IMG/VR virus record: IMGVR_UViG_2700989507_000026
From: a virus
Taxonomy: Duplodnaviria; Heunggongvirae; Uroviricota; Caudoviricetes
Length of the DNA stretch: 11,629 nt
Reading direction: 5' to 3' (one strand)
Below are positions 127-10,299 of the stretch, in pieces. The notes beneath the pieces are model-generated. The model was given only the letters and a program-made list of their open reading frames with translations. It did not search any database and had not been told where the DNA came from. The stretch's first letter is position 1, and each line of letters begins with the position of its first letter. The translations under genes were made by a program, and so were the position numbers.

Positions 127-631
127 GGTCAGAGGATTCGCCAGAATTCTCTGACGAATAATCTTTTCTATTTTCTTTTGTATTAGTGTCTTTTGTGTTC
201 CCCTGTTTTGAGGGATAGCAATCCCCCAATTTGAGGGATGTTTTATCCCTCGTTTTAGGGGATTTTCCCTCGTTTTGAGGGATACACCATTCTGAGATGT
301 TTTTATTTGGTCCAAACATGCCGCCTTGCTGCTTGATAATATTCATTCTGACGAGTTCTAACTTGGCTTCATTGCACCGTTTGACAGGTAACTTTGTAAT
401 CTCGCTAAGTTGAGAATCGGTGATTCTGTCCATTGGTTTATTCCACCCATAGGTTTTACGCAGAATGGCAAGCAGCACTTTAAACTGTCGCTTGGTCAGA
501 TCTGCGCCTGAATAAGCCTCAAGCAGCATATTTGATAGTCTGGCGTAACCATCATCGAGATCTGCCACATTACGCTCCTGTCCGGCAAAGTTACCTCTGC
601 CGAAGTTGAGTATTTTTGCTGTATTTGTCAT
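98..631 (-). CDS. O: Replication initiator O, C-terminally truncated by the IS insertion (about 168 native codons fused to 9 IS-derived codons LNRPGNPGD)
   Basis: N-terminus MTNTAKILNFGRGNFAGQERNVADLDDGYARL... is lambda O; ori iterons lie inside the ORF; reading frame runs into the IS inverted repeat and stops at 98; lambda O is about 299 aa. Confidence 0.85.
   Translation of the reverse strand: MTNTAKILNFGRGNFAGQERNVADLDDGYARLSNMLLEAYSGADLTKRQFKVLLAILRKTYGWNKPMDRITDSQLSEITKLPVKRCNEAKLELVRMNIIKQQGGMFGPNKNISEWCIPQNEGKSPKTRDKTSLKLGDCYPSKQGNTKDTNTKENRKDYSSENSGESSDLNRPGNPGD
199..284. repeat. ori-lambda iterons: four direct repeats of about 18-19 bp (O-binding sites), followed at 130-198 by the AT-rich unwinding region
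   Basis: Four copies of the tCCCTCnnnTTGAGGGAt-type motif at about 199-216, 221-239, 245-263 and 267-284, inside the O coding region. Confidence 0.9.
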
Positions 632-641
632 AATGACTCCT

Positions 642-717
642 GTTGATAGTTCCAGTAATAACCTCAGAATTCCATCTGGATTTGTTCAGAACGCTCGGTT
701 GCCGCCGGGCGTTTTTT
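642..717 (+). ncRNA. oop: oop-like antisense RNA overlapping the 3' end of cII, ending at an intrinsic terminator
   Basis: GC-rich hairpin CGGTTGCCGCCGGGCG followed by TTTTTTATT at 698-720 on the + strand, antisense to the cII 3' end; candidate -10 CATAAT near 629-634. 5' end is approximate. Confidence 0.55.
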
Positions 718-957
718 ATTGGTGAGAATCGAAGCAACTTGTCGTGCCAATCGAGCCATGTCGTCGTCGACGACACCCCATTCAAGAACAGCAAGCAGCA
801 TTGAGAACTTTGGAATCCAATCCCTCTTCCACCTGCTGATCTGCGACTTATCAACTCCCACAGCTTCCGCTGTCTTCTCAGTTCCAAGCATTGCGATTTT
901 GTTAAGCAACGCACTCTCGATTCGTAGAGCCTCGTTGCGTTTGTTTGCACGAACCAT
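664..957 (-). CDS. cII: Transcriptional activator CII (97 aa)
   Basis: Translation from internal Met MVRANKRNEALRIESALLNKIAMLGTEKTAEAVGVDKSQISRWKRDWIPKFSMLLAVLEWGVVDDDMARLARQVASILTNKKRPAATERSEQIQMEF matches lambda CII; the longer ORF in the track (to 1017) is an upstream in-frame extension. Confidence 0.93.
   Translation of the reverse strand: MVRANKRNEALRIESALLNKIAMLGTEKTAEAVGVDKSQISRWKRDWIPKFSMLLAVLEWGVVDDDMARLARQVASILTNKKRPAATERSEQIQMEF
935..948 (+). promoter_or_regulatory. CII-binding site of pRE (TTGC-N6-TTGC) overlapping the cII start; pRE fires in the + direction toward cI
   Basis: TTGCgtttgtTTGC at 935-948 on the + strand, the classical CII recognition repeat. Confidence 0.8.
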
Positions 958-1036
958 ATGTAAGTATTTCCTTAGATAACAATTGATTGAATGTATGCAA
1001 ATAAATGCATACACCATAGGTGTGGTTTATTTTGAT

Positions 1037-1068
1037 GCCCTTTTTCAGGGCTGGGATGTGTAAGAGCG
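1037..1068 (-). promoter_or_regulatory. nutR (boxA CGCTCTTA and boxB GCCCTGAAAAAGGGC hairpin) between cro and cII
   Basis: Reverse complement of 1037-1068 gives CGCTCTTACACATCCCAGCCCTGAAAAAGGGC. Confidence 0.85.
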
Positions 1069-1076
1069 GGAATGTC

Positions 1077-2429
<1,353 letters not shown>

Positions 2430-2479
2430 TCCCCACCTCAATCTCGATAACAAAAAAACAAACTATTTTCCGTTTAAAA

Positions 2480-2553
2480 ACAATGGAGTTTGTTTTTCAC
2501 GTCCCTTTTTTACAATATTTCTTGTTTACAACATACAATCTTCCTTGTAATTT
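2480..2553 (+). promoter_or_regulatory. Left operator OL3-OL2-OL1 (434 type) with PL firing in the + direction
   Basis: ACAATGGAGTTTGT (2480-2493), ACAATATTTCTTGT (2512-2525), ACAATCTTCCTTGT (2535-2548); candidate -35 TTTACA at 2525-2530; the -10 is uncertain. Confidence 0.8.
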
Positions 2554-2594
2554 TAAGCCATCAGCAGGACGCACTGACCACCATTGAAGGTGAG

Positions 2595-2624
2595 GCTCTT
2601 AAAAATTAAGCCCTGAAGAAGGGC
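2595..2624 (+). promoter_or_regulatory. nutL (boxA-like GCTCTTA and boxB GCCCTGAAGAAGGGC)
   Basis: GGCTCTTAAAAATTAAGCCCTGAAGAAGGGC; boxB is canonical for lambda nutL, boxA has one mismatch to CGCTCTTA. Confidence 0.85.
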
Positions 2625-2781
2625 AGCATTCAAAGCAGAAGGCTTTGGTGTGTGTGATACGAAACGAAGCATTGGCCGGAAGTGCGAATCCGGATTAGCT
2701 GCCAATGTGCCATTGCGGGGTGTTTTCGTTCAGGACTACGACTCCCACACACAACCAAAGCTAACTGACAGGAGAATCCAG

Positions 2782-3105
2782 ATGGATGCACAAACACGCC
2801 GCCGCGAACGTCGCGCAGAGAAACAGGCTCAATGGAAAGCAGCAAATCCCCTGTTGGTTGGGGTAAGCGCTAAACCAGTTAACCGCCCTATTCTCTCGCT
2901 GAATCGCAAACCGAAATCACGAGTAGAAAGCGCACTGAATCCGATAGACCTTACGGTGCTGGCTGAATACCACGAACAGATTGAAAGCAACCTGCAACGT
3001 ATTGAGCGCAAGAATCATCGAGTTTGGTATAGCAAGCCAGGTGAGTTCGGTATAACTTGTCAAGGAAGACAAAAGGTTAAAGGGGAATCCATTCCATTGG
3101 CATGA
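2782..3105 (+). CDS. N: Antitermination protein N (107 aa), lambda-like with several substitutions
   Basis: MDAQTRRRERRAEKQAQWKAANPLLVGVSAKPVNRPILSLNRKPKSRVESALNPIDLTVLAEYH...; RBS GGAGA at 2771-2775; track ORF 2650-3105 is an upstream extension through nutL. Confidence 0.92.
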   Translation: MDAQTRRRERRAEKQAQWKAANPLLVGVSAKPVNRPILSLNRKPKSRVESALNPIDLTVLAEYHEQIESNLQRIERKNHRVWYSKPGEFGITCQGRQKVKGESIPLA

Positions 3106-3113
3106 GGTACGTA

Positions 3114-3983
3114 ATGAAGAAGATTGATTACAAGTCCATACCAAAACCAATAGACTCAGCATCAGAGCGAAAAAAACACAAAAAAGAGGCTGAAAAATTA
3201 GCAAATTATATCAGTTTTATTAGAAACAATGCTCACGGCGATGGCGACAAGAAGTTGCTTTCAGATGCTCGGACCCAAGCGTTCGGTATACTTCGTAAGC
3301 AGATGCAATATCGTCTTCATCCTGGCTACATAATTGAAATTCGCCCTACTGAAAGACAATTGTTCTTATTAAACTCTGTCTTTGACTTTGTAAACGTAGT
3401 TGGAGATCTTATCGACAGGTCTGTAGATAAGGATCCTGATACAAATAGTTTTCTTCTAACAAATAAAGAATACTTATATGGTAAATTCGGTATAAACGGA
3501 TGGCAAAAATATGTACGCTTCTTACGTGCATTCGTTGATGCGTATAAAAATTCCGACATGATTTATACATATTTGCCTGGTGGTGATAATTGTACGCTTT
3601 CGGCAGACAATAGAATATTCATACCTGTACTTGGTCTTGGGCTGATTAATGCAGTAAATGAAAAAGATGTTATAATTGTTAAGCAGTGGCGAAAATATGA
3701 GGGATATAGATATCTGCCATGCTTTGATATATTAAAAATACAGAATAAATTCTATGTAAAAATTAAATATAAAGAAGATATTTTCTTCCTCAGAAAAAAC
3801 AAAGATCTTTTACAAGAACTTTCTGGTACAATAGATGTCATCTTAGGTTCTAGGTTTATAAAAGAACTGAAAGAAAGCAGGTCTTTCTCTCGTGTAGAGA
3901 TAAGCGAGTCAGAGTTATGGGGTATATCAAATAATCCTGTAAACCACGCTCACCAACGAAACCCAAACAAAAAGTGGTCATAA
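3114..3983 (+). CDS. Hypothetical protein (289 aa), AT-rich accessory gene in the N-ea10 interval where lambda carries ral/orf28/sieB; candidate exclusion or abortive-infection function
   Basis: Long ORF with SD GAGG 5 nt upstream of ATG 3114 (alternative ATG at 3102 overlaps the N stop); clearly lower GC than neighbours; no recognisable family or catalytic motif. Confidence 0.65.
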   Translation: MKKIDYKSIPKPIDSASERKKHKKEAEKLANYISFIRNNAHGDGDKKLLSDARTQAFGILRKQMQYRLHPGYIIEIRPTERQLFLLNSVFDFVNVVGDLIDRSVDKDPDTNSFLLTNKEYLYGKFGINGWQKYVRFLRAFVDAYKNSDMIYTYLPGGDNCTLSADNRIFIPVLGLGLINAVNEKDVIIVKQWRKYEGYRYLPCFDILKIQNKFYVKIKYKEDIFFLRKNKDLLQELSGTIDVILGSRFIKELKESRSFSRVEISESELWGISNNPVNHAHQRNPNKKWS

Positions 3984-4125
3984 CCCGCTCAGGCGGATTT
4001 CATTTTCACGCAAACAACAGAATAAACACAGCGCTGTGTATTCATTCCAACGAGTGAATACACGGAGCAATGTCGCTCGTAACTAAACAGGAGCCGACTT
4101 GTTCTGATTATTGGAAATCTTCTTT

Positions 4126-4151
4126 GCCCTCCAAGATGAGGGCGATTTTTT
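4126..4151 (+). terminator. Intrinsic terminator upstream of ea10 (tL-type, would be overridden by N antitermination)
   Basis: GCCCTC-caagat-GAGGGC hairpin followed by GATTTTTTAT. Confidence 0.6.
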
Positions 4152-4171
4152 ATCTGTGAGGATATGAACAG

Positions 4172-4540
4172 ATGTCAAACATCAAAAAATACATCATTGA
4201 TTACGACTGGAAAGCATCAATAGAAATTGAAATCGACCATGACGTAATGACAGAGGAAAAACTTCACCAGATTAATAATTTCTGGTCAGACTCTGAATAC
4301 CGACTCAATAAACACGGCTCTGTATTAAATGCTGTATTAATCATGCTGGCGCAACATGCTCTGCTTATAGCAATTTCAAGCGACTTAAATGCATATGGTG
4401 TTGTGTGTGAGTTCGACTGGAATGATGGAAATGGTCAGGAAGGATGGCCTCCAATGGATGGTAGTGAAGGAATAAGAATTACCGATATCGATACATCAGA
4501 AATATTTGATTCAGATGATATGACTATCAAGGCCGCCTGA
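4172..4540 (+). CDS. ea10: Ea10 (lambda Ssb-like early protein, 122 aa)
   Basis: MSNIKKYIIDYDWKASIEIEIDHDVMTEEKLHQINNFWSDSEYRLNKHGSVLNAVLIMLAQHALL... matches lambda Ea10. Confidence 0.9.
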   Translation: MSNIKKYIIDYDWKASIEIEIDHDVMTEEKLHQINNFWSDSEYRLNKHGSVLNAVLIMLAQHALLIAISSDLNAYGVVCEFDWNDGNGQEGWPPMDGSEGIRITDIDTSEIFDSDDMTIKAA

Positions 4541-4612
4541 GCGCGGCGTTACCGCATACCAATTACGCTTCACTCGAGGCGTTTTTCGTTATGTATAAAT
4601 AAGGAGCACACC

Positions 4613-4777
4613 ATGCAATATGCCATTGCAGGGTGGCCTGTTGCTGGCTGCCCTTCCGAATCTTTACTTGAACGAATCACCCGTAAATTACGTGACGGAT
4701 GGAAACGCCTTATCGACATACTTAATCAGCCAGGAGTCCCAAAAAATGGATCAAACAATTATGGCTATCCAGACTAA
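4613..4777 (+). CDS. cIII: CIII (54 aa; FtsH inhibitor that stabilises CII)
   Basis: [54 protein letters not shown]; RBS AAGGAG at 4601-4606; below the ORF-track length cutoff, found by hand. Confidence 0.92.
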   Translation: MQYAIAGWPVAGCPSESLLERITRKLRDGWKRLIDILNQPGVPKNGSNNYGYPD

Positions 4778-4889
4778 ATTCACTATCGCCACTTTTATTG
4801 GCGATGAAAAGATGTTTCGTGAGGCCGTCGACGCTTATAAAAAATGGATATTAATACTGAAACTGAGATCAAGCAAAAGCATTCACTAA
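4746..4889 (+). CDS. kil: Kil (47 aa; host cell-division inhibitor)
   Basis: [47 protein letters not shown] matches lambda Kil; start overlaps the cIII 3' end. Confidence 0.9.
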
Positions 4890-5259
4890 CCCCCTTTCCT
4901 GTTTTCCTAATCAGCCCGGCATTTCGCGGGCGATATTTTCACAGCTATTTCAGGAGTTCGGCCATGAACGCTTATTACATTCAGGATCGTCTTGAGGCTC
5001 AGAGCTGGGCGCGTCACTACCAGCAGATAGCCCGTGAAGAGAAAGAGGCAGAACTGGCAGACGACATGGAAAAAGGCCTGCCCCACACCTGTTTGAATCG
5101 CTATGCATCGGTCATTTGCAACGCCACGGGGCCAGCAAAAAAGCCATTACCCGTGCGTTTGATGACGATGTTGAGTTTCAGGAGCGCATGGCAGAACACA
5201 TCCGGTACATGGTTGAAACCATTGCTCACCATCAGGTTGATATTGATTCAGAGGTATAA
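4844..5259 (+). pseudogene. gam: gam (RecBCD inhibitor) with a single-base frameshift near 5085; the canonical C-terminus is in the +1 frame
   Basis: Frame 1 gives [80 protein letters not shown] then diverges and runs through the bet start; the +1 frame from about 5086 reads [57 protein letters not shown] and ends at 5259, six nt before bet. Confidence 0.8.
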
Positions 5260-5264
5260 AACGG

Positions 5265-6050
5265 ATGAGTACAGCACTCGCAACGCTGGCAGGGAAGCTG
5301 GCTGAACGTGTCGGCATGGATTCTGTCGACCCACAGGAACTGATCACCACTCTTCGCCAGACGGCATTTAAAGGCGATGCCAGCGATGCGCAGTTCATCG
5401 CATTGTTGATCGTCGCCAACCAGTACGGCCTTAATCCGTGGACGAAAGAAATTTACGCCTTCCCTGATAAGCAGAACGGCATCGTTCCGGTGGTGGGCGT
5501 TGATGGCTGGTCCCGCATCATCAATGAAAACCAGCAGTTTGATGGCATGGACTTTGAGCAGGACAATGAATCCTGTACATGCCGGATTTACCGCAAGGAC
5601 CGTAATCATCCGATCTGCGTTACCGAATGGATGGATGAATGCCGCCGCGAACCATTCAAAACCCGCGAAGGCAGAGAAATCACGGGGCCGTGGCAGTCGC
5701 ATCCTAAACGGATGTTACGGCATAAAGCCATGATTCAGTGTGCCCGTCTGGCCTTCGGATTTGCTGGTATCTATGACAAGGATGAAGCCGAGCGCATTGT
5801 CGAAAATACTGCATACACTGCAGAACGCCAGCCGGAACGCGACATCACTCCGGTTAACGATGAAACCATGCAGGAGATTAACACTCTGCTAATCGCCCTG
5901 GATAAAACATGGGATGACGACTTATTGCCGCTCTGTTCCCAGATATTTCGCCGCGACATTCGCGCATCGTCAGAACTGACACAGGCCGAAGCAGTGAAAG
6001 CTCTTGGATTCCTGAAACAGAAAGCCACTGAGCAGAAGGTGGCAGCATGA
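5265..6050 (+). CDS. bet: Bet (Red-beta single-strand annealing recombinase, 261 aa)
   Basis: [68 protein letters not shown]... matches lambda Bet. Confidence 0.95.
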
Positions 6051-6727
6051 CACCGGACATTATCCTGCAGCGTACCGGGATCGACGTGAGAGCTGTCGAA
6101 CAGGGGGATGATGCATGGCACAAATTACGGCTCGGCGTCATCACCGCTTCAGAAGTTCACAACGTGATAGCAAAGCCCCGCTCAGGAAAGAAGTGGCCTG
6201 ACATGAAAATGTCCTACTTCCACACCCTGCTGGCTGAGGTTTGCACCGGTGTGGCTCCGGAAGTTAATGCTAAGGCGCTGGCCTGGGGAAAACAGTACGA
6301 GAACGACGCCAGAACCCTGTTTGAATTCACTTCCGGCGTGAATGTTACTGAATCCCCGATCATCTATCGCGACGAAAGTATGCGCACCGCCTGCTCTCCC
6401 GATGGTTTATGCAGTGACGGCAACGGCCTTGAGCTGAAATGCCCGTTTACCTCCCGGGATTTCATGAAGTTCAGGCTCGGTGGTTTCGAGGCCATAAAGT
6501 CGGCTTACATGGCCCAGGTGCAGTACAGCATGTGGGTGACGCGAAAAGATGCCTGGTACTTTGCCAACTATGACCCGCGTATGAAGCGTGAAGGCCTGCA
6601 TTATGTCGTGGTTGAGCGGGATGAAAAGTACATGGCGGGTTTTGACGAGATGGTGCCGGAGTTCATCGAAAAAATGGACGAGGCACTGGCTGAAATTGGT
6701 TTTGTATTTGGGGAGCAATGGCGATGA
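6047..6727 (+). CDS. exo: Exo (Red-alpha 5'-3' exonuclease, 226 aa)
   Basis: [68 protein letters not shown]... matches lambda Exo; start overlaps the bet stop. Confidence 0.95.
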
Positions 6728-6906
6728 AGCATCCTCACGATAATATCCGCGTAGGCACGATCACTTTCGTCTACTCCGTTACGAAGCGAGGCTGGGTATT
6801 TCCCGGCCTTTCTGTTATCCGAAATCCGCTGAAAGCCCAGCGGCTGGCTGAGGAGATAAATAATAAACGGGAGGCGATATGCACAAAGCATCTCCTGTTG
6901 AGTTAA
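6718..6906 (+). CDS. Lambda orf60a-like small protein (62 aa)
   Basis: [62 protein letters not shown]; immediately after exo as in lambda. Confidence 0.75.
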
Positions 6907-7070
6907 GAACGAGTATTGAGATGGCACATAGCCTTGCTCAAATTGGAGTCAGGTTTGTGCCAATACCAGTAGAAACAGACGAAGAATTTCATACGTTAGC
7001 CACATCCCTTTCGCAAAAGCTGGAAATGATGGTGGCGAAAGCAGAAGCAGATGAGAGAGACCTGGTATGA
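6879..7070 (+). CDS. Lambda orf63-like small protein (63 aa)
   Basis: [63 protein letters not shown]; overlaps the orf60a end as in lambda. Confidence 0.75.
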   Translation: MHKASPVELRTSIEMAHSLAQIGVRFVPIPVETDEEFHTLATSLSQKLEMMVAKAEADERDLV

Positions 7071-7150
7071 CAACCACTGAATGCATTTTTCTGGCAGCGG
7101 GCTTCATATTCTGTGTGCTTATGCTTGCCGACATGGGACTTGTTCAATGA
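7067..7150 (+). CDS. Small hydrophobic peptide (27 aa), possible single-pass membrane peptide
   Basis: ATGA overlap with the preceding stop; MTTTECIFLAAGFIFCVLMLADMGLVQ; its stop overlaps the next ATG (ATGA), suggesting a translationally coupled chain. Confidence 0.4.
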   Translation: MTTTECIFLAAGFIFCVLMLADMGLVQ

Positions 7151-7362
7151 CACCTCAGCAAGAAAACGCCCTTCGCAGTATTGCCCGTCAGGCTAATTCT
7201 GAAATCAAAAAAGCCAGACAGCAGTTTCCGGATAAAAACGTCGATGACATTTGCCGTAGCGTACTGAAGAAGCACCGCGAAACGGTAACGCTGATGGGAT
7301 TCACACCGACTCATTTAAGCCTGGCGATCGGCATGTTAAACGGCGTCTTTAAGGAACGGTGA
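7147..7362 (+). CDS. Hypothetical small protein (71 aa), early-left-operon gene of unknown function
   Basis: MTPQQENALRSIARQANSEIKKARQQFPDKNVDDICRSVLKKHRETVTLMGFTPTHLSLAIGMLNGVFKER; good coding texture, start coupled to the upstream peptide. Confidence 0.6.
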   Translation: MTPQQENALRSIARQANSEIKKARQQFPDKNVDDICRSVLKKHRETVTLMGFTPTHLSLAIGMLNGVFKER

Positions 7363-7382
7363 GCATGAAAAGCAAAATCATC

Positions 7383-7406
7383 AGGGAGCTACAGGCTCCT
7401 TTTTTA
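7383..7406 (+). terminator. Intrinsic terminator (tL-type)
   Basis: AGGGAGC-tacag-GCTCC hairpin followed by TTTTTT at 7400-7405. Confidence 0.6.
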
Positions 7407-7460
7407 TTGTTCGCATTCACCCTCAAGCGTATTAACCAACAATTCAGGGATTAATGGAAG

Positions 7461-7682
7461 ATGGCAGACATCATTGATTCAGCATCAGAAATTGAAGAAT
7501 TACAGCGCAACACAGCAATAAAAATGCGCCGCCTGAACCACCAGGCTATATCTGCCACTCATTGTTGTGAGTGTGGCGATCCCATAGATGAGCGAAGACG
7601 CCTGGCCGTTCAGGGTTGTCGGACTTGTGCAAGTTGCCAGGAGGATCTGGAACTTATCAGTAAACAGAGAGGTTCGAAGTGA
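7461..7682 (+). CDS. TraR/DksA-family C4 zinc-finger protein (73 aa), probable RNA-polymerase secondary-channel binder
   Basis: CxxC-N16-CxxC arrangement (CCECGDPIDERRRLAVQGCRTCASCQ) resembling F-plasmid TraR (CEACGNPIPEARRK...CVECQ). Confidence 0.8.
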   Translation: MADIIDSASEIEELQRNTAIKMRRLNHQAISATHCCECGDPIDERRRLAVQGCRTCASCQEDLELISKQRGSK

Positions 7683-7834
7683 GCGAAATTAACTAGAAGC
7701 CAAAGATAAAATCATCGCTGAGCAGGAGAAAATCGCTAACGGAGAAAAGACAGTAAGTCAGTATATGAAAACCGCATGATATCATCAGATAAAAATCGAT
7801 CGTAAAGCGAAATATTAATACCAGAATAAACGAG

Positions 7835-7858
7835 TCGAGGTAAATTATATTACCTCGA
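7835..7858 (-). terminator. Probable terminator for the minus-strand membrane-protein gene
   Basis: Perfect 9-bp inverted repeat TCGAGGTAA-attata-TTACCTCGA 35 nt beyond the stop at 7893; on the minus strand it is followed by CTCGTTTATT. Confidence 0.45.
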
Positions 7859-7892
7859 TAAATTAACTAAAACTTGCCCGCTATATACTATC

Positions 7893-8495
7893 TCATTCAG
7901 TATCATCACGCGCGGTCTGTGCATATGTTACTACCGCACCTAATGTATTAATTTTCTTTTCAACATAGATAATATTATCGTACTCATAATTGCCATACGG
8001 ATAGCAAATGCGAATATTCTCATGTAGATCGGGGTCATCCACCTCAGCTCCAGAACAACTTTTTGAACTACCGGAAGTATACCGATACGGTGCAACATAA
8101 GACGATGTCTCTCCAGGCAAAAAATAAGTTAGTGTTGTAAGGGGTATAATCAGAAAAAATCCAGCAAATATGCACATCCCTGCATAAACCTTAAGGTATG
8201 CTGACAGACTCTTCCAGCCGCTTTGTTTTACTATCCCCTTCTTAACCCAAAACAGAGATAACAGAAAAGCTATTCCCATGCTAAACAGAATGTAATAGTG
8301 GGATATACTCTGATTAAGAAACGTGACCCTGTAAATATCTGCCCGCCACCAGAAGAAAAGGAAAATAAAGATCAGGCCTGAAACTGTCATGCAAATCAAA
8401 TAAGGATACGAATCTTTTTTCATGTTTAGCGCCCATAAAATTTTTCCTGCCCCGGACAAATTTACCATCCATTTTTTGCGCAGAAAATAGCTCAT
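7893..8495 (-). CDS. Hypothetical integral membrane protein (up to 200 aa; about 3 predicted TM helices plus a roughly 75-aa Cys-containing C-terminal domain), AT-rich, transcribed against the PL operon
   Basis: Hydrophobic segments YLICMTVSGLIFIFLFFWW, YYILFSMGIAFLLSLFWV, AGMCIFAGFFLIIPLTTLTYFL; only sizeable minus-strand ORF in the early-left region; start is ambiguous (Met codons at 8495, 8468, 8423); no family recognised. Confidence 0.6.
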   Translation of the reverse strand: MSYFLRKKWMVNLSGAGKILWALNMKKDSYPYLICMTVSGLIFIFLFFWWRADIYRVTFLNQSISHYYILFSMGIAFLLSLFWVKKGIVKQSGWKSLSAYLKVYAGMCIFAGFFLIIPLTTLTYFLPGETSSYVAPYRYTSGSSKSCSGAEVDDPDLHENIRICYPYGNYEYDNIIYVEKKINTLGAVVTYAQTARDDTE

Positions 8496-8667
8496 TACTT
8501 ACTGCACAATAATACACAAAATTGCGTAAATTTTTTGCATGGATTTTAGCTCTTTCAGCCGACGTTTAAGGGGTAAATAGCATTTCCTAAAAGCAACTGC
8601 ACCAACCCAACAGAATGAGCTACCGCTTACGTTGAGAGCAAAAAAGTGTATAGCAGCAATGAACAGC

Positions 8668-8696
8668 ATCCTCGCACTGACGAGGATTTCTTTTAT
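8668..8696 (+). terminator. Intrinsic terminator on the + strand between the membrane-protein gene and the 55-aa ORF
   Basis: ATCCTCG-cactga-CGAGGAT hairpin followed by TTCTTTTAT. Confidence 0.55.
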
Positions 8697-8737
8697 CTGA
8701 ACTCGCTACGGCGGGTTTTGTTTTATGGAGATGATAA

Positions 8738-8905
8738 ATGCACTTCCGAGTCACAGGTGAATGGAATGGAGAACCATTCAACAGAGTTATCGAAGCAGAG
8801 AACATCAATGACTGCTATGACCACTGGATGATATGGGCGCAGATAGCACATGCAGACATAACCAATATTCGAATTGAAGAACTGAAAGAACACCAAGCCG
8901 CCTGA
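8738..8905 (+). CDS. Small hypothetical protein (55 aa) immediately upstream of xis
   Basis: RBS GGAG at 8727-8730; MHFRVTGEWNGEPFNRVIEAENINDCYDHWMIWAQIAHADITNIRIEELKEHQAA; stop lies in the loop of the next terminator. Confidence 0.55.
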   Translation: MHFRVTGEWNGEPFNRVIEAENINDCYDHWMIWAQIAHADITNIRIEELKEHQAA

Positions 8906-8920
8906 TGGCGGCTTTTTCTT
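8895..8920 (+). terminator. Intrinsic terminator just upstream of pI/xis
   Basis: AAGCCGCC-tgat-GGCGGCTT hairpin followed by TTTCTT. Confidence 0.7.
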
Positions 8921-8932
8921 GCGTGTAATTGC
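8919..8932 (+). promoter_or_regulatory. CII-binding site of the pI promoter (TTGC-N6-TTGC), which would give CII-dependent int expression
   Basis: TTGCgtgtaaTTGC immediately upstream of the xis ATG, as in lambda pI. Confidence 0.8.
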
Positions 8933-8944
8933 GGAGACTTTGCG

Positions 8945-9163
8945 ATGTACTTGACACTTCAGGAGTGGAACGCACGCCAGCGACGCCCAAGAAGCCTTGA
9001 AACAGTTCGTCGATGGGTGCGCGAATGCAGGATATTCCCTCCTCCGGTTAAGGATGGAAGAGAGTATCTGTTCCACGAATCAGCGGTAAAGGTTGACTTA
9101 AATCGACCAGTAACAGGTAGCCTTTTGAAGAGGATCAGAAATGGGAAGAAGGCGAAGTCATGA
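8945..9163 (+). CDS. xis: Excisionase Xis (72 aa)
   Basis: MYLTLQEWNARQRRPRSLETVRRWVRECRIFPPPVKDGREYLFHESAVKVDLNRPVTGSLLKRIRNGKKAKS matches lambda Xis. Confidence 0.95.
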   Translation: MYLTLQEWNARQRRPRSLETVRRWVRECRIFPPPVKDGREYLFHESAVKVDLNRPVTGSLLKRIRNGKKAKS

Positions 9164-10211
9164 GCGCCGGGATTTACCCCCTAACCTTTATATAAGAAAC
9201 AATGGATATTACTGCTACAGGGACCCAAGGACGGGTAAAGAGTTTGGTTTAGGCCGAGACAGGAGGATAGCAATCACTGAAGCAATACAGGCCAATATTG
9301 AGTTATTTTCAGGACACAAACACAAGCCTCTGACAGCGAGAATCAACAGTGATAATTCTGTTACGTTACATTCATGGCTTGATCGCTACGAAAAAATCCT
9401 CGCCAGCAGAGGAATCAAGCAGAAGACACTCATAAATTACATGAGCAAAATTAAAGCAATAAGGAGGGGGCTGCCTGATGCTCCACTTGAAGACATCACC
9501 ACAAAAGAAATTGCGGCAATGCTCAATGGATACATAGACGAGGGCAAGGCGGCGTCAGCCAAGTTAATCAGATCAACACTGAGCGATGCATTCCGAGAGG
9601 CAATAGCTGAAGGCCATATAACAACAAACCCGGTCGCTGCCACTCGCGCAGCAAAATCAGAGGTAAGGAGATCAAGACTTACGGCTGACGAATACCTGAA
9701 AATTTATCAAGCAGCAGAATCATCACCATGTTGGCTCAGACTTGCAATGGAACTGGCTGTTGTTACCGGGCAGCGAGTTGGTGATTTATGCGAAATGAAG
9801 TGGTCTGATATCGTAGATGGATATCTTTATGTCGAACAAAGCAAAACAGGCGTAAAAATTGCCATCCCTACAACATTGCATGTTGATGCTCTCGGGATAT
9901 CAATGAAGGAAACACTTGATAAATGCAAAGAGATTCTTGGCGGAGAAACCATAATTGCATCTACTCGTCGTGAACCGCTTTCATCCGGCACAGTATCAAG
10001 GTATTTTATGCGCGCACGAAAAGCATCAGGTCTTTCCTTCGAAGGGGATCCGCCTACCTTTCACGAGTTGCGCAGTTTGTCTGCAAGACTCTATGAGAAG
10101 CAGATAAGCGATAAGTTTGCTCAACATCTTCTCGGGCATAAGTCGGACACCATGGCATCACAGTATCGTGATGACAGAGGCAGGGAGTGGGACAAAATTG
10201 AAATCAAATAA
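9141..10211 (+). CDS. int: Integrase Int (356 aa, tyrosine recombinase)
   Basis: MGRRRSHERRDLPPNLYIRNNGYYCYRDPRTGKEFGLGRDRRIAITEAIQANIELFSGH... matches lambda Int, including the C-terminal catalytic Tyr region (ASQYRDDRG); overlaps the xis 3' end as in lambda. Confidence 0.96.
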   Translation: MGRRRSHERRDLPPNLYIRNNGYYCYRDPRTGKEFGLGRDRRIAITEAIQANIELFSGHKHKPLTARINSDNSVTLHSWLDRYEKILASRGIKQKTLINYMSKIKAIRRGLPDAPLEDITTKEIAAMLNGYIDEGKAASAKLIRSTLSDAFREAIAEGHITTNPVAATRAAKSEVRRSRLTADEYLKIYQAAESSPCWLRLAMELAVVTGQRVGDLCEMKWSDIVDGYLYVEQSKTGVKIAIPTTLHVDALGISMKETLDKCKEILGGETIIASTRREPLSSGTVSRYFMRARKASGLSFEGDPPTFHELRSLSARLYEKQISDKFAQHLLGHKSDTMASQYRDDRGREWDKIEIK

Positions 10212-10299
10212 TGATTTTATTTTGACTGATAGTGACCTGTTCGTTGCAACAAATTGATAAGCAATGCTTTTTTATAATGCCAACTTAGTATAAAAAAGC
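10212..10299. other. attL: phage P' arm (Int arm-type and IHF sites) plus the 15-bp common core at 10285-10299, joined to bacterial attB sequence
   Basis: Reverse complement of the lambda P' arm (CAATTTGTTGCAACGAACAGGTCACTATCAGTCAAAATAAAATCATTATT) followed by core TTAGTATAAAAAAGC (reverse complement of GCTTTTTTATACTAA) and then AGG..., matching the bacterial arm of attB. Confidence 0.9.

Follow-up and report, generated by a model that had tools for sequence, protein, structure and literature searches.

What does a lambdoid prophage keep between its antiterminator gene N and ea10, in the slot where phage lambda has ral and sieB? The question is raised by an 11,629-nucleotide stretch of viral DNA (IMG/VR record IMGVR_UViG_2700989507_000026; hereafter the window), in which an open reading frame (ORF) at 3102–3983 on the + strand, of 293 codons counted from its first ATG, follows N. 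An earlier note on this DNA had described the ORF as an unrecognised gene of 289 amino acids (aa) and as a candidate for prophage defence or exclusion. The ORF was 100% identical to CPT_434_48 of phage 434 (GenBank OL657226), and its product (the 434 protein) ended in the effector peptide of Nun, the exclusion protein of phage HK022. Our preferred reading, held with moderate confidence, is that the gene product is a long RNA-polymerase arrest factor of the Nun type and of modular build, in which a folded targeting domain replaces the arginine-rich motif (ARM) of Nun.

The C-terminal residues of the 434 protein (VNHAHQRNPNKKWS) were identical at 14 of 14 positions to residues 96–109 of HK022 Nun (phmmer against Protein Data Bank (PDB) chain 6alg_N), so the product does bear a recognisable motif, where the earlier note had seen no catalytic one. 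PHROG 5632, labelled "Nun-like transcription termination factor", matched residues 274–293 of the 293-aa ORF (E = 7e-5). In the elongation complex, Nun is ordered at residues 87–109 only; residues 102–109 occupy the pocket between the hybrid and the downstream duplex, and R102 forms a pair with the C-terminal carboxylate (Kang et al., 2017, PMC5386594). Residues N97, H98, H100, R102, K106, K107 and W108 touch the rudder, the hybrid and the downstream DNA, and mutants in them are less active; H98A, K106A/K107A and W108A are classical loss-of-function alleles, N103A is neutral, and Nun without its C-terminal 13 residues has no activity and does not bind polymerase (PMC5386594). All seven contact residues were present in the 434 tail. 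BLASTP against Nun aligned the C-terminus alone, and no N-terminal boxB-binding ARM was present. A candidate for such a motif, SERKKHKKEAEKLANY, resembled the arginine-rich motifs of Nun and N by eye and was rejected, being Lys-rich rather than Arg-rich, unconserved and unsupported by BLASTP; the Lys-rich stretch at residues 17–28 was not conserved, and the candidate stacking residue Tyr32 was Cys in relatives.

Codon comparisons argue that the tail is kept by selection and is not a scar. The close family of the 434 protein (the long family) is tiny, a handful of clusters among 5.8 billion proteins plus a few at 36–48% identity; all of its members retained V-N-H-A-H-x-R-x-x-x-K-K-W(-S) via different codons. 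In relatives 42–68% identical, the last 14 codons had a proportion of non-synonymous differences (pN) of 0–0.13 versus 0.5–1.0 for synonymous differences (pS). The variable positions were Q101, N103, P104 and N105 (Nun numbering), of which N103 is the experimentally dispensable one. The 3' flank of the 42%-identical relative, from the uncultured HK022-like phage L003, was unrelated to the 434 flank, and its tail is therefore not explicable by the same flank exchange.

The peptide was also found on other proteins. A degenerate DNA pattern for VNHAH.R...KKW, searched in IMG/VR viral contigs, gave matches in at least 120 contigs, and among the matches listed, 121 of 121 stood in the frame of an ORF, at its very C-terminus. 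After removal of the tail, the bodies were grouped, with unrelated meaning no BLASTP link at E < 1e-5. At least six unrelated bodies were obtained: canonical Nun (57), the long family (29), and four groups of 80–125-aa proteins with diverse Arg-rich N-termini (e.g., NSKNRRFKARGE, GRRKLRRKHLQ and SRARCKARRKQRR). The short proteins share the terminal peptide, and presumably the effector logic, of the 434 protein but have ARM-like N-termini, whereas the long family, alone among the tail-bearing groups listed, has a large folded body. The short proteins, encoded at loci L031, L039, L040, L043, L056, L064, L068, L105, L108 and others, may be paralogues of Nun directed at different nut specificities. 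Nun, the textbook example of rival exclusion through the jamming of RNA polymerase by a phage protein, has been regarded as one small ARM protein with specificity for lambda nut; the presence of its peptide on at least six unrelated bodies, including a large one that is TnpB/Cas12-like by prediction, would turn Nun into a modular family and prompts the question what the other bodies target.

The locus of the 434 gene is interchangeable with nun. The immunity region of L003 was 76% identical to that of HK022, pL-like promoter included, until about 105 nt ahead of the gene. It contained a 70-nt two-hairpin block with about 95% identity to the stretch of HK022 just behind pL (L003 2905–3010 vs. 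HK022 locus L002 1972–2077) that is putL-like; putL lies just downstream of HK022 pL (PMC9378689). At the nun position, L003 encoded a 290-aa relative of the 434 protein with a terminator directly behind it, while in the Escherichia coli prophages L011 and L012 an N-like gene was immediately followed by canonical nun, and the 3' flank was the one seen in 434. The weight that the earlier note gave to the slot downstream of N was thus well placed, as other E. coli prophages hold a proven exclusion gene there. Among the IMG/VR matches listed, about 21 of 32 long-family genes trailed an N gene by 1–8 nt (one by 22 nt), and 7 of 32 had no ORF within 60 nt upstream.

The body was approached by structure prediction. 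AlphaFold with three sequences gave an unusable model (predicted local distance difference test score, pLDDT, 43). An exhaustive HMMER search returned 24 proteins (E ≤ 0.001), mostly distant relatives matching residues 73–225, and a 30-sequence alignment including distant relatives gave a usable AlphaFold2 (AF2) model with a pLDDT of 81 and a predicted template modelling score of 0.70, residues 10–220 being mostly at 82–95. The model comprised helices 16–38 and 43–65, a strand at 71–77, helices within 80–145, strands within 152–219 together with one helix, and a helix at 230–257 closed by the conserved motif ESRSFSRVEIS, after which residues 260–281 were disordered. In the alignment, the basic N-terminal extension was confined to the lambdoid-phage subfamily. 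In a Foldseek search with this model, of the kind suggested in the earlier note, the top nine matches were Cas12k, l, n, f and p (E 0.01–0.13), and giant-virus "transposases" were within the top five of a BFVD fold search. The order of one strand, a helical bundle and the remaining barrel strands is, as in the ISDra2 structure, the WED-REC-WED arrangement of TnpB, and on the predicted model the WED domain was split by a REC helical insertion. There was no RuvC domain (D-E-D triad) or zinc-finger/TNB domain, the protein stopping about 70 residues past the WED strands, and no Pfam OrfB match. Literature searches for TnpB with Nun or with the bacteriophage exclusion (BREX) system gave nothing relevant.

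As we read these data, the 434 protein has four parts: a basic two-helix extension, a folded core predicted to resemble WED plus REC, the fold with which TnpB/Cas12 grip nucleic acid, a long helix with a disordered linker, and the 14-residue Nun peptide. On firing of pL, N and the 434 protein would be made at once, the gene being the second cistron before the first terminators. The folded body would recognise a specific nucleic acid or a feature of the elongation complex in place of the boxB-binding ARM, and the tail would thread into the active-site cleft of RNA polymerase, tie the polymerase to the DNA/RNA scaffold and block translocation. Early transcription of the phage itself would escape, protected by N modification in 434 and by put modification in the HK022-like relative, and the outcome would be arrest of competitor-phage or host transcription. 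Put-modified polymerase passes Nun-dependent termination, and lambda N runs inside the catalytic cavity, beside the upstream DNA and then along the hybrid (PMC8632103). The nutL boxB of the window matters here because N-modified polymerase would be expected to resist a Nun-type tail.

Several observations weigh against this reading. Nun residues H93 and R94, which contact the upstream duplex, were not conserved and are Asn-Asn in the 434 protein; R94A greatly weakens Nun binding (PMC5386594), and the tail alone may therefore bind weakly. Distant relatives of the body bear a tail of the GGLPSLGKRR type instead of the Nun peptide, so the body may have had an ancestral function unconnected with RNA polymerase. 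The analysis turned up no target, guide RNA or binding site for the body, and the scan found no promoter for lysogenic expression, so that prophage exclusion is at most a candidate role. The tie to TnpB/Cas12 is claimed as a fold resemblance, not as family membership, and depends on a model predicted from 30 sequences: hhalign against six real TnpB N-termini gave a probability of 3% with the first-strand motif alone aligned, and a PDB profile search with the family found no TnpB.

The transcription signals bear on a different use of the same tail. Between the N stop codon and ATG 3114 there were 8 nt; the scan showed no terminator-like site between the two genes and no consensus promoter upstream of the second, which is probably co-transcribed with N from pL before the first terminators, as annotation and scan together suggest. 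Because of this spacing and the lack of an intervening terminator and of a consensus promoter, the gene looks no less like an immediate-early lytic gene than like a defence gene expressed in lysogens. The sole candidate promoter for lysogenic expression, seen by eye inside N, was a weak TATAAC whose -35 element is poor; the scan lists none, and the candidate was rejected. The tight coupling to N would suit a host-takeover factor, made with N in early lytic growth, that arrests unmodified host polymerase broadly, with N-modified phage transcription going on, and has no role in the lysogen. High-level Nun arrests host polymerase non-specifically and is toxic, according to the literature, and lambda N fills part of the same cavity. 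We nevertheless think host takeover unlikely, with a small but real chance of being correct: the HK022-like relative has the gene exactly at the site of lysogen-expressed nun, and, were no specificity needed, it would be hard to see why the protein has a large, conserved, folded body. To our knowledge, classical 434 biology holds no hint of host shut-off.

The distant relatives, which lack the N-terminal extension, were found in defence neighbourhoods. Relatives of 276–288 aa lay between brxC and pglX (L007 and L008, 7001–7831; L009, 7001–7867; L010, 4390–5256), with intergenic gaps of just 23–35 nt, and PADLOC confirmed BrxA-BrxB-BrxC-[relative]-PglX operons holding two of them. The BREX operons with a relative continued with two unknown genes and an HSP70-like gene. 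Other relatives adjoined ParB, NYN, RelA-SpoT, PLD and MZB genes, an MZB gene plus a UvrD helicase gene (L014), or a Pycsar pair (L017). A stand-alone abortive-infection or defence protein, whose body senses or cuts invading nucleic acid with the tail as an accessory, would fit these surroundings and the AT-rich, moron-like, terminator-bounded character of the 434 gene. It is nonetheless improbable, since the protein has no nuclease or other catalytic domain, no RuvC and no PADLOC match, and since the phage-borne subfamily has exchanged its relatives' tail for one that binds polymerase, a swap suggesting that the effector is the tail. In PADLOC-DB 2.0, zero families matched the 434 protein at E up to 1, and the same was true of a BREX-embedded relative. 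An exclusion or conflict role, more specific than the earlier note could state, is plausible because of the nun slot, the selected effector peptide and the relatives in BREX operons and defence islands. These support the candidacy proposed in that note; the lack of a PADLOC, Pfam or NCBIfam defence match and of evidence for a lysogen promoter counts against it.

The distant relatives had a near-invariant end, ...G-x-x-V-x-GGLPSLGK(R/G/H)R, and this peptide (P0010–P0035; L020, 7932–8243; L019, L021 and L022, near 8001–8240) was not confined to them. Genome stretches matching GGLPSLGK[RGH]R numbered 90, and relatives were encoded in 9 of these only. The GGLPSLGKRR tail also ended an unrelated 103-aa Bradyrhizobium protein encoded downstream of a 721-aa AAA_15 ATPase, in which an OLD-nuclease-like (Toprim-type) motif was seen by eye. 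It looks like another portable tail; literature searches for the GLPSLGK motif gave nothing relevant. A wider proposal, which we regard as rather doubtful, is that a nuclease-less WED-REC module derived from TnpB/Cas12 has been reused as a delivery device, specific for sequence or structure, for short C-terminal effector peptides. It would carry the Nun tail in lambdoid phages and, just as tentatively, GGLPSLGKRR in BREX operons and defence islands. The body ties the 434 gene to uncharacterised genes inside BREX operons, and would be an unusual nuclease-less TnpB-like module; the delivery device, if real, would establish peptide-warhead conflict proteins as a new class and might even amount to a programmable system for transcription arrest.

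The DNA around the tail shows where it meets HK022. The block of high identity starts at the Nun V96 codon and spans the stop codon, short hairpin, inverted repeat and terminator; upstream of codon 276 there was no DNA similarity to nun, and the 14 tail codons differed from HK022 at three places, all synonymous. This boundary, with identity beginning precisely at the first tail codon and extending into the non-coding flank, together with the different tail of distant body relatives, is what would be expected if the Nun tail were a recombination scar from exchange of the 3' flank, on a body of unrelated function, which might be that of a DNA-binding regulator or of an anti-defence protein. Such a scar is highly improbable: the tail has been retained despite saturated synonymous sites and with almost no non-synonymous change, the family 3' flanks are not homologous to 434 (L003), and, among the matches listed, the peptide ends every protein that has it, across several unrelated bodies. 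In HK022, IS903 (L002, 2655–3711) splits the conserved non-coding block downstream of nun, with a 9-bp target duplication corresponding to window 4042–4050. Given this insertion point, the inverted repeat there is dispensable for Nun function in HK022. The repeat, with a perfect 9-bp core (GTGTATTCA/TGAATACAC), and the intrinsic terminator had both been reported correctly in the earlier note; the repeat is not specific to the gene, since nun-carrying phages have it too. At the position of the short hairpin, relatives had stronger terminators (alignment of L005 with HK022; L003 terminator at 3988–4007).

Least probable of all is RNA-guided arrest, in which a TnpB-like body would bind a guide RNA and steer the arrest peptide to complementary targets, as the predicted WED/REC fold of RNA-guided nucleases might suggest, because RuvC and TNB (the main holders of omega RNA and heteroduplex) are missing, the downstream non-coding block is common to canonical nun, which has no such body, BREX-embedded relatives leave gaps of 23–35 nt, the flank has no Rfam match, and conservation of the amino acids accounts for the conserved 3' coding stretch. 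Two candidate RNAs were rejected, a guide or omega RNA in the downstream flank, with no Rfam match near the gene, and an element in the 3' coding region. The latter was a hairpin at 3869–3891, overlapped by the sole blastn match between the window and L003 (3872–3892), where the codon alignment showed conservation at the amino-acid level.

Set beside known systems, the 434 protein is closest to HK022 Nun (6alg chain N; PHROG 5632), with which it shares the last 14 residues, the slot in the pL operon, the 3' flank and terminator (95% DNA identity) and a disordered tail. Nun, however, has 109 aa, a boxB-binding ARM and no folded core, whereas the 434 protein has 289 aa, no ARM, no H93/R94 and a predicted core of about 150 residues. 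Free HK022 Nun is intrinsically disordered. The nun gene replaces N in HK022, while the 434 gene follows N, and a PNun-type promoter was not identified in 434; HK022 nun reportedly has a constitutive promoter of its own, a finding ascribed to King et al. in 2000. The predicted core resembles the WED and REC domains of TnpB/Cas12 (ISDra2 TnpB, 8h1j; RdCas12n, 9udi), but RuvC, zinc-finger/TNB, IS200/IS605 context, omega RNA and significant profile similarity are lacking; the gene context is a lambdoid early operon, not IS200/IS605 or CRISPR. With lambda sieB and ral, the gene has in common the position between N and ea10 and an accessory, moron-like character, without similarity in sequence or predicted fold. 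SieB is a small, membrane-associated abortive-infection protein expressed from its own promoter. No Pfam, NCBIfam or PHROG match of the 434 protein to lambda SieB or Ral was found, in agreement with the earlier note, which saw no resemblance to a lambda protein.

The ORF itself is a real gene under purifying selection, judging from its family: the four family genes were codon-identical in just 12 of 90 amino-acid-identical columns, and pS was 0.77–0.89 (saturated) versus a pN of 0.19–0.41. Its GC content of 0.346, versus 0.455 for the window and 0.489 for N, and its Shine-Dalgarno sequence bore out the AT-rich composition and good ribosome-binding site of the earlier description. The coordinates 3102–3983 and the length of 289 aa given there do not belong together: the ORF extends over 3102–3983, but the in-frame ATG 3102 overlaps the N stop codon (ATGA), has no Shine-Dalgarno sequence and gives 293 aa, while the 289-aa product starts at 3114. 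ATG 3114, the annotated start in the phage 434 record, is the best start on sequence grounds. Profile searches with Pfam, PADLOC and NCBIfam gave no match to the 434 protein, and PHROGs gave the local Nun-like match over the last 20 residues and PHROG 12139, labelled "unknown function".

The gene is not wholly unrecognised, as its product in OL657226 is named "Nun C-terminal peptide-containing protein", and the Nun tail is thus already known from the GenBank annotation; literature searches found no paper on the 434 gene, and the 434 genome announcement does not discuss it (PMC9119081). That the tail is modular and under selection, that the body is predicted to resemble TnpB/Cas12, that an HK022-like phage has a relative of the gene in place of nun and that further relatives lie in BREX operons and defence islands appears to be undescribed. 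The gene was present neither in lambda nor in lambda imm434, which has lambda genes instead (sequence comparison). As imm434 is the hybrid of much classical work, a phenotype could have escaped notice for 60 years. Among phage records, tblastn with the 434 protein matched 434 and 434B only. A full-length copy was found in 83 of 5426 complete E. coli genomes. Disrupted copies exist in some E. coli prophages, including one truncated by IS1A (L013 1788–3054, E. coli EC190486), and another, P0008, in which the 23 N-terminal residues of Bet are fused to the last 73 residues of the 434 protein to give 96 aa.

Phage 434 was 99.8% identical to window 127–10299, and the prophage was located at the lambda attachment site, beside ybhC. 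The curated OL657226 annotation was moved to the window (Table 1) through a constant offset of 899 (locus L001 vs. window). The upstream gene is labelled "antiterminator" in OL657226 and "antitermination protein N" in E. coli genomes.

Table 1. Features of the 434 gene, its product and its surroundings, in window positions.
Feature	Position	Strand	Source
Early-left order: 434 cI, hex, oL/pL, nutL, N, gene, terminator, ea10, cIII, kil, gam, bet, exo			Transferred annotation
pL -10 hexamer (2547–2552) and transcript start; operon carrying the gene	2547–2560	+	OL657226 annotation, transferred
nutL boxB stem-loop, lambda type	2609–2625	+	OL657226 annotation, transferred
N antiterminator, 107 aa, lambda-type ARM MDAQTRRRERRAEKQAQWKAAN, directly upstream	2782–3105	+	ORF list
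Shine-Dalgarno sequence GAGGT, five bases ahead of ATG 3114	3104–3108	+	Sequence; ribosome-binding site annotated in OL657226
Coding sequence, 289-aa "Nun C-terminal peptide-containing protein" (434 CPT_434_48, PHROG 12139)	3114–3983	+	OL657226, PHROGs
N-terminal extension, aa 1–69, two long helices (16–38, 43–65), isoelectric point 10.05	3114–3320	+	AF2, alignment
Core, aa 70–220: strand, helical bundle, beta-barrel strands; predicted WED split by REC-like insertion	3321–3773	+	
Long C-terminal helix, aa 221–257, and flexible linker, aa 260–275 (pLDDT <50)	3774–3938	+	AF2, alignments
Nun peptide, aa 276–289 (VNHAHQRNPNKKWS) = HK022 Nun 96–109	3939–3980	+	phmmer, PHROG 5632
Mosaic block, 95% DNA identity to HK022 nun 3' end and flank	3938–4153	+	Pairwise blastn, alignment
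Short hairpin CCGC-TCAG-GCGG followed by ATTTCATTTT, right behind the stop codon	3985–4006	+	Sequence
Imperfect inverted repeat, arms 4026–4047 and 4052–4073, 77% complementary	4026–4073	.	Repeat search
Intrinsic terminator (4124–4145 and T run), end of the N-gene48 unit, tL1 equivalent	4124–4153	+	Scan; OL657226 annotation

Other features of the window were noted. Homology to HK022 ended at 4153 and restarted at 4554, the ea10 gene (DUF2528; 4172–4540) and its ribosome-binding site forming a 400-bp insertion relative to HK022 (window 4154–4553). In the rexA/rexB slot after cI there was a 134-aa ORF (2025–2429) overlapping the cI stop codon; the 434 annotation calls it Hex, a repressor-protection protein, and comments that the published start codon was wrong. 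Its product had a signal-like hydrophobic stretch at the N-terminal start. The Rfam family Lambda_thermo (cIII thermoregulator RNA) matched window 4600–4658 with 88.5 bits, as expected of a lambda-type cIII leader. Between the early-left genes and xis/int, an AT-rich ORF of 200 aa (7893–8495) lay on the opposite (-) strand. Its product was hydrophobic by sequence, with several hydrophobic stretches, and its C-terminal half matched PHROG 1416 (unknown function); it looks like another moron.

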